Assembly: GCA_016866975.1 (NCBI GenBank) | Contig: VGKP01000022.1 | Span: 1-10,744 of the forward strand | Source: Candidatus Pacearchaeota archaeon | GTDB lineage: Archaea; Nanobdellota; Nanobdellia; Pacearchaeales; GW2011-AR1 | Length of the DNA stretch: 10,744 nt | Direction of reading: 5' to 3' | Part shown: positions 6,466 to 10,744 of the stretch, in pieces | How the letters are laid out: each line of letters opens with the position of its first letter | Position numbering within the stretch: position 1 is the stretch's first letter | Translations under genes and position numbers: made by a program | The notes under the pieces: model-generated | The model's input: the letters and a program-made list of their open reading frames with translations, nothing else | What the model was told of the DNA's origin: nothing | Databases searched by the model: none

Positions 6466-6696
6466 ATGGGTTTGGAAGACATAGATGTGACCAAAGTTAT
6501 AGAAGAGTTGGAGAATATTTCAGGAGTAAGAGTGTTTGATGAGGATTTAAGAGCCGGAATCTTTTATATAGGGATGGAGTTGCCAGATGGAAAGAGCGAG
6601 CTGACTGCGCTGGTCGAGATATATGAAGATAGAGCCTATTTCTTAAAAGAAGGCGTACCTGAAACAACACCTCCTTCTTATGTCGGGAACCGATGA
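6466..6696 (+). CDS. Hypothetical acidic protein, probably truncated by element copy 3
   Basis: Starts 10 nt after the previous stop. The last codons (VGNR*) come from the repeat. Removing 6682-6796 joins the gene in frame to a 21-codon tail ending at TAA 6860-6862. Confidence 0.6.
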   Translation: MGLEDIDVTKVIEELENISGVRVFDEDLRAGIFYIGMELPDGKSELTALVEIYEDRAYFLKEGVPETTPPSYVGNR

Positions 6697-6796
6697 AAAC
6701 CACACCTTTCAAGGTGTGGTGGTTCCCGAGCATCTCCAAAAACGAGCGCCTGCAACAAACCTCGGCTTTTAAGCCGAGGTGGCGCATCGTTTTTGT
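6682..6796. mobile_element. Double-hairpin element, copy 3 (115 nt, full length)
   Basis: Hairpin A: TCGGGAACC(6683-91)/GGTTCCCGA(6721-29), 7-nt bulge, ACCACACC-TTTCAA-GGTGTGGT. Hairpin B: CAAAAACGA/TCGTTTTTG, GCGCC/GGCGC, bulge TGCAACAA, ACCTCGGC-TTTTAA-GCCGAGGT. Covaries with copy 1. Confidence 0.8.
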
Positions 6797-7711: not shown

Positions 7712-9084
7712 CAGAATTTTACCTTCCTAGCAAATTTCTTTGCAAACTTCATCATTGTCTTCTGGTCTAACGCTCCTGACTCAAGGCCTTTCATTGCGGA
7801 TCCTGAGTGCATCATTTCCTTGAGGAGCCTATATTGTTTGATGAGGGCGCGAATATCGGAAGTTGTTGTTCCTGAACCTTTTGCGATACGGGCAATGCGA
7901 GAGGTCTGCTTCTCTAATATCTCAGGGTTTTCTTTCTCTTCTCTTGTCATAGATTTAATTGCTGCTTTCCAGTGTTTCATCTGATTTTCCTGCTTACTGA
8001 CTGCTTCAGTAGGCACTTTATCCTTGAGATGCCCTAATCCAGGAATATGTGAAAGCAATTTGTCAAAAGAACCCATCCCTGCCATTGACTCTAATTGTGA
8101 TGCGAAGTCATCTAAAGAAAACTTGCCTTCTTCAAGCCTTTTTTGTTGGGCCTCAATAGCGCTTTTGTCCACTACTGAGTGTATCTTTTCAAGCAACGAT
8201 TTAAGATCTCCCATGCCTAAAAGACGAGAGAGGAATGAGTCTGGGTCGAATGACTCAAGGTCCGATGGTTTTTCTCCAGTGCCTATAAATACTATAGGGG
8301 CTTTCACTTCTGCACATGCAGTAAGTGCACCTCCTGCTTTTGCCGTAGAATCCATTTTGGTAATTATCACACCCGTTATATCAAGGGCTTCTTTAAATGT
8401 CTGAGCTTGTTTTTTTGCCGTCTGGCCTACATCTGCAGACATTACAAGAAATGTCTCTGTTGGCTTTGCCAATTTTGCTATATCTTTTATCTCTTTTATT
8501 AGGTCTGAGGAGAGAGCGTCTCGGCCCGCAGTGTCAATAATGACTAGAGAGTATTTCTTTAATTCTGGCTCGAATTTTTTCCATATTTTCTTGGGGTCTT
8601 TTTCTTCTGGGGAAATGAAGGCTGGTATGTTTAACTTGTCGCAGAGTTGTTTCAACTGATCTGATGCGGCGGGTCGATGGACATCCAGTCCAATCGCGCA
8701 GACCTTGTTGCCTCTCTTGGCATAATATGACGCAAGCTTACTAATTGTAGTGGTCTTTCCTTGCCCATAAAGGCCGAGCATCATAAAAATGTTTCCCCTC
8801 TCTTTTAGCATGATATCTTTCTTTTCCCCTAAAAGACGTACCAGCTCTTCATGAAGGAGTTTAATGATATGTTCTTTTTTCTCAAGGCCTTTTATACGTT
8901 CATCCAAAGCAGCCTGCTTTATCTTCTTAGTAATTTCTAACACCAAGGAAATATTGACATCTGCTTCAATCAATGCCCTTTGAAGGTCTTTGATAATTTG
9001 GTCAACTAGTGCCTTGTCAAGAAAGATAGCATTCGCTATTTTATCTGTTGCTTTTTGCAGGACTGAAGAGAGTTTTTCTAACAT
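7711..9084 (-). CDS. srp54: Signal recognition particle 54 kDa protein (archaeal SRP54)
   Basis: N-domain LIEADVN, G1 GLYGQGKTTT, DVHRPAA, DTAGR, TKMD, GGALT, GTGEK, LLGMGDL, and a Met-rich M domain with IKSMTREE and RIAKGSG. Confidence 0.97.
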   Translation of the reverse strand: MLEKLSSVLQKATDKIANAIFLDKALVDQIIKDLQRALIEADVNISLVLEITKKIKQAALDERIKGLEKKEHIIKLLHEELVRLLGEKKDIMLKERGNIFMMLGLYGQGKTTTISKLASYYAKRGNKVCAIGLDVHRPAASDQLKQLCDKLNIPAFISPEEKDPKKIWKKFEPELKKYSLVIIDTAGRDALSSDLIKEIKDIAKLAKPTETFLVMSADVGQTAKKQAQTFKEALDITGVIITKMDSTAKAGGALTACAEVKAPIVFIGTGEKPSDLESFDPDSFLSRLLGMGDLKSLLEKIHSVVDKSAIEAQQKRLEEGKFSLDDFASQLESMAGMGSFDKLLSHIPGLGHLKDKVPTEAVSKQENQMKHWKAAIKSMTREEKENPEILEKQTSRIARIAKGSGTTTSDIRALIKQYRLLKEMMHSGSAMKGLESGALDQKTMMKFAKKFARKVKF

Positions 9085-9893
9085 GATAATGTGTCTAATG
9101 GACTCCTTATATTCTTTATGGAATGTTGAGATATGTGGGTATATATCTGAGTTGTTTTTATATCACTATGTCCCAAGAGCTTTTGAATTACTTTTAAATC
9201 TGTTCCTTGCTCGAGCAAGTGAGTGGCGAAACTGTGGCGCAGAAGATGAGGATAGACCTCTTTAGTAATCCTTGCCCTTATTGCCGCTTTCTCAACAATT
9301 GCCTGAATTGTAGCAGTAGTAAGTTTTCCACCTCTTTGAGATTGAAATAAGACTGTTCCCTGCGTTAAAACAGAATAGTTTTTCAACTTCTCTTTAATTG
9401 ATTCCGGTATTTTTACAAACCTGTCTTTTTTTCCTTTTGCCATTCTTATATGAATCAGACCTTCTTCAAAATTCAAGTCGTTTTTGTTTAAAGAGACAAT
9501 TTCTGAAACGCGGAGACCGCATCCATAAAGCACCTTAAGAATTAATTCATGCTTTACATTGAGAGGAGCATTAATTAATTTTCCAGCTTCTTCTTTTGTC
9601 AATATATCGGGTAAGATTTTATTTCTTTTCGGGCGCGGAATATTTATTTTGATATTAAGAACTTTTTCAAAGAAAAACTGAATTGCGAAAATTTCATGTG
9701 CAATCGTAGAAGGGGCTTGTGTCTTTATCTGAATTTGAATATAATCCTTAACTTCTTGTTCGCTAAACTGCTTGTTCTTTAAATAGTTTAAGAATTTATT
9801 TAGCGAGTTCGTATAACTTTTGAGAGTTTTGTGTGAAAAATTACGGATTTCAATCTCTTGCTGAAGTTTTTGCAGAGCTTCTTCTTTGTTCAT
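9078..9893 (-). CDS. Tyrosine recombinase (Xer/IntI-related, 271 aa) lacking the IntI-specific insertion
   Basis: Catalytic set YGCGLRVSE (R), AKGKKDR (K), HLLRHSFATH (HxxR), LLGHSDIKTTQIYTH (H, Y). N-terminal SAM-like IRNFSHKTLKSY and C-terminal IRSPLD. TATA-like ATTTAAAA (9915-9922, - strand) 21 nt upstream. Confidence 0.92.
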   Translation of the reverse strand: MNKEEALQKLQQEIEIRNFSHKTLKSYTNSLNKFLNYLKNKQFSEQEVKDYIQIQIKTQAPSTIAHEIFAIQFFFEKVLNIKINIPRPKRNKILPDILTKEEAGKLINAPLNVKHELILKVLYGCGLRVSEIVSLNKNDLNFEEGLIHIRMAKGKKDRFVKIPESIKEKLKNYSVLTQGTVLFQSQRGGKLTTATIQAIVEKAAIRARITKEVYPHLLRHSFATHLLEQGTDLKVIQKLLGHSDIKTTQIYTHISQHSIKNIRSPLDTLSC

Positions 9894-9948: not shown

Positions 9949-9976
9949 TGGTATCATAAATGTAATTATGATGCCA
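9949..9976. other. dif-like recombinase site (11-6-11)
   Basis: TGGTATCATAA-ATGTAA-TTATGATGCCA. The arms are inverted repeats (10/11), with the CATAA-N6-TTATG core of Xer dif sites, 55 nt upstream of the recombinase ATG. Confidence 0.7.
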
Positions 9977-9980
9977 TAGT

Positions 9981-9989
9981 GTTATACGC
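9981..9989 (+). other. Putative cassette insertion point (attI/R'-like core, G|TTATACGC)
   Basis: GTTATACGC is the exact reverse complement of GCGTATAAC at 10543-10551, at the far end of the cassette. Confidence 0.65.
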
Positions 9990-9991
9990 AA

Positions 9992-10006
9992 TAAAAACGA
10001 AGCCCC
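9992..10006. repeat. Left 15-bp inverted repeat bracketing the cassette ORF
   Basis: TAAAAACGAAGCCCC, perfect reverse complement of 10481-10495. Confidence 0.85.
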
Positions 10007-10070
10007 ACCTCGCGCTATGCGCGAAGACAAAACACAAACTATTTAAACTAAAAGATTTTAAGTGAATGAT

Positions 10071-10478
10071 ATGAGAAAAGGAGAATCTTCATTTAACAAT
10101 CTCAACAAAGTTCTTATAGGATTACTCATAATTGGATTAATCTCAAAATTATACAATCTCTATTTGAATAGAGCTACCTTCGAAAACTTTAATTTCATGT
10201 TTTCTTGGACACTAATTTTGGCTTTTGTTCTTCCTTTAATTTTCATTTACGGAGCAATCAAGCAATCAAAGTTTTGGTATATTGTTATGGGCATCTGGGT
10301 TTTTAGAGAGTTTGATAATATGTGGACAAATTATGTGATTGCTCCTTTAATGTTGGGAACAAAAGACCAATACTTCTTGTATAATTTTGCAATAACATTA
10401 TTACTTCTTGGAATAGCAGTAATTGGAGTAATCCTATACTTAAAATCTTTTAAAACAATAAAAGAAGCAGTTGAATAG
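10071..10478 (+). CDS. Hypothetical 4-TM membrane protein (135 aa from ATG 10071), cassette cargo
   Basis: Four hydrophobic segments. TATA-like TTTAAACT (10042-10049) lies 21 nt before ATG 10071, which favours that start over GTG 10062. Confidence 0.8.
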   Translation: MRKGESSFNNLNKVLIGLLIIGLISKLYNLYLNRATFENFNFMFSWTLILAFVLPLIFIYGAIKQSKFWYIVMGIWVFREFDNMWTNYVIAPLMLGTKDQYFLYNFAITLLLLGIAVIGVILYLKSFKTIKEAVE

Positions 10479-10480
10479 TA

Positions 10481-10495
10481 GGGGCTTCGTTTTTA
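10481..10495. repeat. Right 15-bp inverted repeat bracketing the cassette ORF
   Basis: GGGGCTTCGTTTTTA, 2 nt after the stop codon. Confidence 0.85.
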
Positions 10496-10497
10496 CT

Positions 10498-10540
10498 TTC
10501 TCGCTACGCTCGAACCACATTGCATTCTCGCTTACGCTCG
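10498..10540. repeat. Short direct repeat TTCTCGC(T)TACGCTCG, two copies
   Basis: 10498-10512 and 10525-10540 differ by one inserted T. Confidence 0.75.
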
Positions 10541-10544
10541 GGGC

Positions 10545-10656
10545 GTATAACAGCGATTTAACGGCTCGGAGGTTGCACCTCCTCAACCCATATTTTTTGC
10601 TTATTGATTATTTTTTTAGATAGTGCAAAAAACATCGTTAAATCGCGATGTTATAT
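10545..10656 (+). other. attC-like folded recombination site (112 nt)
   Basis: R''-like GTATAAC (10545-51) and R'-like GTTATAT (10650-56). TATAACA pairs with TGTTATA; GCGATTTAACG (10553-63) pairs perfectly with CGTTAAATCGC (10636-46); 2-nt GA bulge at 10647-48. Inner stems GGAGGT/ACCTCC and TTTTTTGC/GCAAAAAA. Confidence 0.7.
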
Positions 10657-10744
10657 TCAATCGTCGTGTAGAATTATAGAAGGGGGAGCCGTCGCACGAG
10701 GTTCCTTCGGAACAGATAGTCTTCAGCTTCGCTTCAGAATTATT

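Follow-up and report, generated by a model that had tools for sequence, protein, structure and literature searches.

A probable mobile cassette of an integron-like system, first in an array beside a XerA-type recombinase gene of a Pacearchaeota-type archaeon

The window, by which we mean the whole 10,744-nt stretch of DNA analyzed, is the entire contig C22 of a 0.8-Mb genome in 31 contigs that is 89% complete. The gene content, which includes SRP54, a RIO-type kinase, and a short AlaRS together with a XerA-type recombinase, fits a Pacearchaeota-type DPANN archaeon. The recombinase, a XerA-type tyrosine recombinase of 271 residues recognized with Pfam and NCBIfam profiles, is encoded on the minus strand (9078-9893) and is divergent from a cassette array on the plus strand, the first cassette of which starts 88 nt from the recombinase start codon. 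Reading the plus strand directly, we found a palindrome in the attI region at 9950-9975 (GGTATCATAA-ATGTAA-TTATGATGCC), with 10-bp arms and a 6-nt spacer, that ends 5 nt before the attI/cassette junction. At this junction (9981-9989), attI gives the G and cassette 1 opens with TTATACGC, the nine bases being an exact complement of the R'' box described below. The leader arm of an outer stem (TAAAAACGAAGCCCC, 9992-10006) precedes a cargo gene for a 135-residue hydrophobic orphan protein (10071-10478, taken from the ORF list, with an alternative GTG start at 10062), and the trailer arm (GGGGCTTCGTTTTTA, 10481-10495) lies 2 nt past the stop codon, so that the two arms form a perfect 15-nt inverted repeat bracketing the only ORF. 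Next on the plus strand come a one-sided internal loop (10496-10542) that is unpaired in the circle fold and holds two copies of the family-conserved TTCTCGCT(T)ACGCTCGGG motif, and R'' itself (GCGTATAAC, 10543-10551), recognized by direct reading and site alignment. DNA folds of both strands and covariation divide the adjoining stretch (10552-10649) into A10552, L'' (10553-10563), a 72-nt variable loop with a hairpin (10568-10582) and CCCATAT (10587-10593), L' (10636-10646), and GAT (10647-10649), with the GA of this GAT bulged and its T paired with A10552 in the DNA fold. In the hybrid R' that follows (10650-10658), G ends cassette 1 and TTATATTC opens cassette 2, the start of which (10651-10744) is cut by the contig end after 94 nt and has a leader that recurs in other genomes. 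Scanning the window against Rfam and for tRNAs gave no match. The genome has five such folded modules, at ends of contigs C22, C7, and C16.

The cargo protein had no Pfam or NCBIfam match and no homologue in 400 genomes of the family. A TATA-like TATTTAAA (10040-10047) lies 24 to 30 nt upstream of the cargo ATG and suggests that the gene has its own promoter, and the cassette probably drives its own expression through a near-leaderless mRNA.

We also observed that a family of double-hairpin mini-elements of about 56 copies shares its opening bases with the leader of this cassette. The mini-element (ATCA[AC]-AAAAACGATGCGCC-hairpin-...GGCGCTCGTTTTT...) occurs in the window at about 8-124 and on the minus strand at 6682-6796, and in 56 copies genome-wide; it always follows ATCA, is often at contig ends, in some copies has an insert containing CTGATGAG, and gave no Rfam match. 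The cassette leader at 9993-10024 (AAAAACGAAGCCCC-ACCTCGCGC-TAT-GCGCGA) resembles the mini-element opening AAAAACGATGCGCC-ACCTCGGC..., the first block of each pairing with a GG(G/C)GC(T)TCGTTTTT farther along. This likeness may be coincidence or may reflect a shared building block.

A sequence-only reading of this DNA had centered on R'', proposing that GCGTATAAC at 10543-10551 is a 9/9 reverse complement of GTTATACGC at 9981-9989 and complements GTTATATTC at 10650-10658 over GTTATA only. Direct reading gave both matches at these positions. The observation was nevertheless incomplete, as the 15-nt inverted repeat prolongs the same complementarity to a total of 9 + 15 nt.

A crude pattern scan for AAC...GTT palindromes was too noisy and was replaced by a covariance model (R1), built from four of the genome's modules (alignment A1), which scores 126 bits at the window site. 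Of 121 genomes from the taxonomic family searched with R1, 52 contained the site family, and the loci examined held 109 sites. The window site folds about equally on both strands (-20.9 and -23.1 kcal/mol; z = -4.9 and -5.6). Over the 109 sites, AAC is kept in 105 to 108 and GTT in 101 to 108, AAC-A preceding L'' and GAT-GTT following L' show almost no variation, and the loop region containing the conserved motif is likewise conserved (columns 0-16 of alignment A2). The L stem showed compensatory changes at 10 of its 11 pairs, with 89% of cells paired, and the outer R positions, taken as they stand in arrays, were paired in 53% of cells, as a hybrid R' predicts. The family thus consists of imperfect palindromes with R''/L''/L'/R' boxes and AAC...GTT ends, in which structure is conserved over sequence. 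The canonical attC fold has an unpaired central spacer, extrahelical bases, and a variable terminal structure (PMC8946536). Relative to this fold, the variable loop is present and the R and L stems are parted only by the 2-nt GA bulge on the R' arm; we found no unpaired central spacer in the site fold and no Rfam match. Separately, we noted "collapsed" sites (e.g., TTAAC-AGCG-ATTATATTC) directly before the GTTATATTC leader at loci L149, L151, L152, L155, and L156, in which the gap from R'' to R' is only 4 nt and the L boxes and loop are gone; they look like hairpin deletions of full sites.

That R'' is the partner of its own cassette's 5' end, as the sequence-only reading had it, proved to be a rule in this family. 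We compared the reverse complement of R'' with its possible partners in 59 consecutive-site pairs from 29 loci, nearly all in different genera. Because GTT/AAC and the base after it hardly vary among family sites, information is confined to about five to six variable positions, and the six variable bases compared were R'' positions 4-9. R'' matched its own cassette's 5' end at all six in 19 of 59 pairs (mean, 3.76), compared with 4 of 59 for the downstream R' (mean, 2.59) and 2.8% for a random site of another genome (mean, 2.40). A Wilcoxon test gave p = 3.6e-4, and 19 perfect matches were reached in none of 5,000 permutations; these p values are generous because the relatives share ancestry and may have cassettes in common, but the effect size is large nonetheless. 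In the perfect cases, the match ends exactly at nt 9, and the AAT of the leader then faces CCC, the complement of a conserved GGG. The rule was perfect in only about one-third of neighboring pairs, with many of the failures being a single mismatch and some cassettes misfitting entirely. Part of this shortfall came from missed sites, with 6 of the 40 nonperfect pairs hiding an undetected site that carries the predicted R''. Single-mismatch wobble on the top versus the bottom strand, read by eye with no scripted tally, gave mixed cases, and the strand inference was dropped. The L'' box covaried with the R'' 6-mer, L'' boxes being near-identical in 18.5% of pairs against a baseline of 5%, and did not covary with the downstream start (6%). 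The folded core thus travels with the upstream gene. A complementarity rule of this kind belongs to textbook integron biology; the partnership of a cassette start with its own R'' is reportedly the rule by which Hall, Brookes and Stokes mapped the integron crossover in 1991.

The outer stem extends this pattern. Exact leader-trailer complementarity of at least 10 nt (10 to 17 nt) occurred in 39 of 59 cassettes compared with 6% of 400 non-own pairs, none of which exceeded 15 nt. The leader arm usually begins at cassette nt 12, and the trailer arm lies 32 to 85 nt upstream of R''. We then folded as DNA the circle junction that would join 10476-10650 to 9982-10012. Its top strand folded at -42.5 kcal/mol versus -24.8 kcal/mol in the array, and its bottom strand at -45.4 versus -29.2 kcal/mol, while joining 105 non-own leaders gave a mean of -27.0 kcal/mol (standard deviation, 1.9) and a best value of -33.9 kcal/mol. 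A circle of 9982-10650 would fold about 17 kcal/mol better than the array site because the leader also pairs with the trailer. By these folds, the recombination module is predicted to be a three-stem structure with the crossover inside it.

Homology to other genomes breaks off at both ends of the proposed cassette. On the attI side, homology with two relatives ends at GTT (9981-9983), where the contigs of both relatives also end. These contigs, which stop exactly at the attI GTT, are those of locus L158 (end of G328:C38) and locus L159 (end of G374:C45); their ends suggest that strains in these samples differ in the first cassette, so that the assembly graph branches at the junction. On the other side, folded-core homology ends at about 10646-10663, with 5 of 9 matches ending by 10654, and homology to the next leader begins at 10648-10651. 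Segments shared between genomes run from the trailer into the folded core and stop 2 to 3 nt past the junction G, or else start at G; one such segment, at 96% identity over 350 nt, ends 2 nt after G. These breakpoints indicate that the core belongs to the upstream gene and that the exchange point lies past L' but ahead of the first variable base in R', within GATGTT (10647-10652). The claim that crossover occurs between G and TT was thus upheld in its location, in that the breakpoints fall inside this invariant GATGTT, and not to the exact bond, which they do not single out; from the own-5'-end rule together with breakpoints at GTT, we infer exchange between G and TT. Neither DNA nor protein searches found the window's cassette elsewhere in 400 genomes of the family, and because the same cassette is absent from relatives, its breakpoints were mapped only via the flanking site and leader. 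So far as sequence can show, these GTT breaks on either flank make 9982-10650 a single unit, in agreement with the earlier proposal that it entered as a circle, and we infer the circle itself.

We also detected signs that a different cassette starts at 10651. The leader from this point onward is 92 to 95% identical in at least 9 other genomes, where it stands behind different sequences. The sequence-only reading had predicted that the next site in such a cassette should open with GAATATAAC, and among 14 other genomes with the leader GTTATATTCAATCGTCGTGTAG..., the next site opens with GAATATAAC in 5, followed by A/G and the L'' box, and with another R'' in 3, with no next site detected in the rest; GAATATAAC also opens the next site at loci L045 and L060. 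A search for a site opening with GAATATAAC in the window's own genome returned chance matches only and no module, the contig ending at 10744. Contig C16 begins inside a module with its R'' cut off, and for this reason C16 and C22 cannot be linked. A hairpin-ACAGATAG-hairpin motif at about 10693-10740 in cassette 2 is also conserved in short ORF-less first cassettes next to attI at loci L057, L059, and L039. In addition, a second array (locus L003) lies on contig C7 of the window's genome (G000) at about 40360-41140, beside a short N-terminal recombinase-like reading frame (MDAREEDFLNKLHEHLKLRNYS...) at the contig end. A tblastn search with the window's recombinase did not pick up this C7 frame, which is therefore probably a stump.

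The position of attI relative to the recombinase gene is fixed across relatives. The window's gene belongs to a 31-row subclade in which 23 members could be tested, and 20 of these have a GTT-N6-AAT junction 78 to 95 nt (mostly 85 to 88 nt) upstream of the start codon. Homologous attI regions carry different first cassettes in different genomes. As in integrons, attI adjoins the integrase-like gene, and the cassettes share one orientation leading away from it. About 20 loci of the recombinase clade described below (clade I) have homologous palindromes with covarying 10- to 12-bp arms and a 6-nt spacer located 3 to 5 nt before the junction; loci L158, L159, L160, and L161 exemplify this covariation. 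The palindrome is upstream of the TATA-like box of the recombinase gene and therefore could act as a recombinase site or an operator or could form a hairpin.

The recombinase has the catalytic residues R128, H216, R219, H242, and Y251, with the motifs GLRVSE, HLLRHSFAT, LGHS, and IYTH read by eye in an alignment with XerA. It matches Pfam Phage_integrase (146 bits) along with a SAM-like N domain, and it scores 234 bits on the NCBIfam model XerA_Arch (NF040815; cutoff, 220), which places it in the XerA family. The integron-integrase model TIGR02249 gave 202 bits, below its cutoff of 265 and split in two stretches. The best relative of solved structure is XerA (4a8e). In comparison with VchIntIA (2a3v), residues 177-192 of the query face residues 184-243 of the chain, such that about 44 residues are missing at the site of the IntI-specific domain; the additional domain near patch III that marks IntI is absent. 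A C-terminal RSPLD motif was considered as an IntI hallmark and rejected, since SPLD, SPID, or NPLD occurs in both recombinase clades.

The genome's second XerA copy, on contig C7 (16846-17646), is 39% identical to the window's enzyme and scores 254 bits on NF040815. Recombinase matches were bimodal over the 121 genomes, and a tree of 68 copies, made by a quick search without an outgroup (no IntI or bacterial Xer included), split them into clade I and clade II with an SH-aLRT value of 99. The window's gene is in clade I, which is present in some 30 of the 121 genomes, whereas nearly all have clade II. An attI-type junction accompanied 23 of the 34 clade-I rows, with 8 having no room at a contig end and 3 having none, versus 32 of the 34 clade-II rows without one. 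All clade-I proteins are 266 to 281 residues long, and many clade-I genes are at contig ends with the 5' end outward, as is the window's gene. Rather than a single housekeeping copy acting at dif, we found two copies in the genome, with the array linked to clade I. In this tree, the window's enzyme is a member of a dedicated paralogue clade separate from the second XerA. One genome, G113, shows a clade-I copy only, and given this case, a clade-I enzyme may have a dual role in array and housekeeping recombination.

These analyses lead us to regard 9982-10650 as probably one mobile cassette of an integron-like system, the first in an array beside its recombinase gene. Support for this cassette model is comparative throughout, drawn from genome sequences. 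In the proposed mechanism, the module would consist, in order, of the outer stem, the one-sided loop, a 9-bp R stem plus an A-T pair, the 2-nt bulge, an 11-bp L stem, and the variable loop, and strand exchange would occur inside this module, within the invariant GATGTT. A cassette circle would recombine with attI or with the site of another cassette, splitting the module; most of it would stay at the 3' end of the cassette, and the last approximately 25 nt (TTATACGC-AA-TAAAAACGAAGCCCC) would become the 5' end. Because insertion would split the module in this way, R'' and the trailer complement the start of their own cassette and not that of the next one. The circle junction would read ...AAATCGCGATG joined to TTATACGCAAT... 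(in longer form, ...CGTTAAATCGCGATG joined to TTATACGCAATAAAAACG...), and the empty junction would read ...GATGCCATAGTG joined to TTATATTCAATCG.... Sequence comparison shows that R'' complements its own cassette's start, that this complementarity is general in the family, where the cassette unit begins and ends, and that the arrays are linked to a recombinase clade of their own in which the position of attI is fixed. The neighboring recombinase probably catalyzes the exchange, and by analogy with integrons, the substrate would be the folded single strand of the excised circle. The folded-strand mechanism is an analogy because the enzyme is without the IntI domain, the site is without a central spacer, and the bulge is on the R' arm.

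We weighed this cassette model against three other explanations of the same features. The 9/9 match is not chance, and the idea that it merely reflects a small repertoire of preferred R''/R' 9-mers is hardly credible. The repertoire is indeed limited, with GTTAGTTTC found in 15 of 108 starts, and the R'' consensus is complementary to the R' consensus, but own pairs were perfect in 32% of cases versus 2.8% at random, a count that permutation never reproduced (0 of 5,000), and neither the 15-nt outer stem nor the fold energy came anywhere near the control values. Only slightly less remote is a transposon-like unit of 9981-10551 with 9-bp terminal and 15-bp subterminal inverted repeats, for which the hairpin at 10552-10649 would be a fixed platform. 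In its favor, GTTATACGC and GCGTATAAC are perfect inverted repeats at the two ends, and another inverted pair lies immediately internal to them. However, homology between genomes spans the trailer, R'', L'', and L' and breaks off at GTT (the 96% identity over 350 nt noted above), the L'' box correlates with R'', and the first cassette abuts the attI junction without a platform hairpin of that type.

Double-strand recombination of the Xer/dif type, IMEX-like or dif-module-like, is the most serious of the three, although we consider it unlikely. Here the core sites would be duplexes, the palindromes accessory or incidental, and no single strand would fold. Such recombination would suit an enzyme that passes the XerA model, is without the extra IntI domain, and is closest to solved XerA structures, and it would suit a conserved dif-like palindrome with 10-bp arms and a 6-nt spacer only 5 nt from the attI junction. 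The junction, however, is outside this palindrome rather than in its 6-nt spacer. Moreover, the arms of the cassette sites, 70 to 150 nt apart, stay paired through compensatory substitutions (at 10 of 11 L-stem pairs), and the complementarity of R'' and the outer stem to the cassette's own start would be useful only if strands fold.

The cassette model has consequences for how integrons are recognized. The definition of an integron calls for an integrase with a special domain; here the rule that reveals cassette circles holds beside a short Xer-type recombinase. The system works like an integron, but its recombinase falls outside the integron integrases. If this recombinase is the integrase, gene capture of the integron type would not require the extra domain, a whole lineage would escape integron searches that take the domain as a requirement, and the step from chromosome-resolving Xer to gene-capturing integrase would be open to test. 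The crossover-spanning outer stem offers a specific feature to mutate. We put forward more tentatively, at rather less than even chances, that these loci represent a distinct DPANN integron lineage, with a dedicated XerA paralogue without the IntI domain and a three-stem site fully paired only in the excised circle. In such a lineage, the fold would mark free cassettes as better substrates, providing built-in directionality. The lineage might also explain archaeal attC clusters without an integrase, and it could be an ancestral or a convergent form of integron.

Archaeal clusters of this kind have been described, most of them with no integrase. Ghaly et al. 2022 found Pacearchaeales genomes with two to three attC sites and no IntI (PMC9668308), in a survey with six IntIs for 539 attC sites in 75 archaeal genomes, and treated the IntI-specific domain as defining (PMC9668308). 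As that paper relates the work of Messier and Roy 2001, IntI needs the extra domain for activity (PMC9668308). In the literature searched, we found no description of a link to a domain-less dedicated Xer-type recombinase, of a fixed attI position, of a 9-bp R stem, or of an outer stem in such arrays.

Among known systems, IS200/IS605-type elements are similar in their use of folded DNA hairpins, but the window's system has no Y1 transposase and instead forms an ordered, one-directional array beside a tyrosine recombinase, with boundaries at GTT. The archaeal XerA-dif system shares the enzyme family and a short palindrome with a 6-nt spacer at the insertion locus. Xer/dif recombination is exploited by bacterial IMEX and by the dif modules of Acinetobacter plasmids. 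Unlike in Xer/dif systems, the window's recombinase belongs to a dedicated paralogue clade distinct from that of the widespread second copy, the cassette sites fold as long palindromes instead of being 28-bp duplexes, and the junction is outside the palindrome spacer. Sedentary chromosomal integrons and archaeal CALINs are the closest parallels, as the window likewise has an array of cassettes with one gene each and a recombinase gene pointing away from it, though CALINs are without the integrase. Further likenesses to integrons are an insertion site that adjoins the recombinase gene, cassettes that end in an imperfect palindrome with AAC...GTT and R''/L''/L'/R' boxes, a cargo of orphan genes, and a cassette start that partners its own R''. 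In contrast to integrons, the window's recombinase is a XerA paralogue without the IntI-specific domain, the R stem is 9 bp with six free positions, and a conserved 2-nt bulge on the R' arm takes the place of an unpaired central spacer. An extra outer stem of 12 to 17 bp spans the crossover, attI contains a dif-like palindrome, and cassettes of the window's type seem to carry their own promoters.
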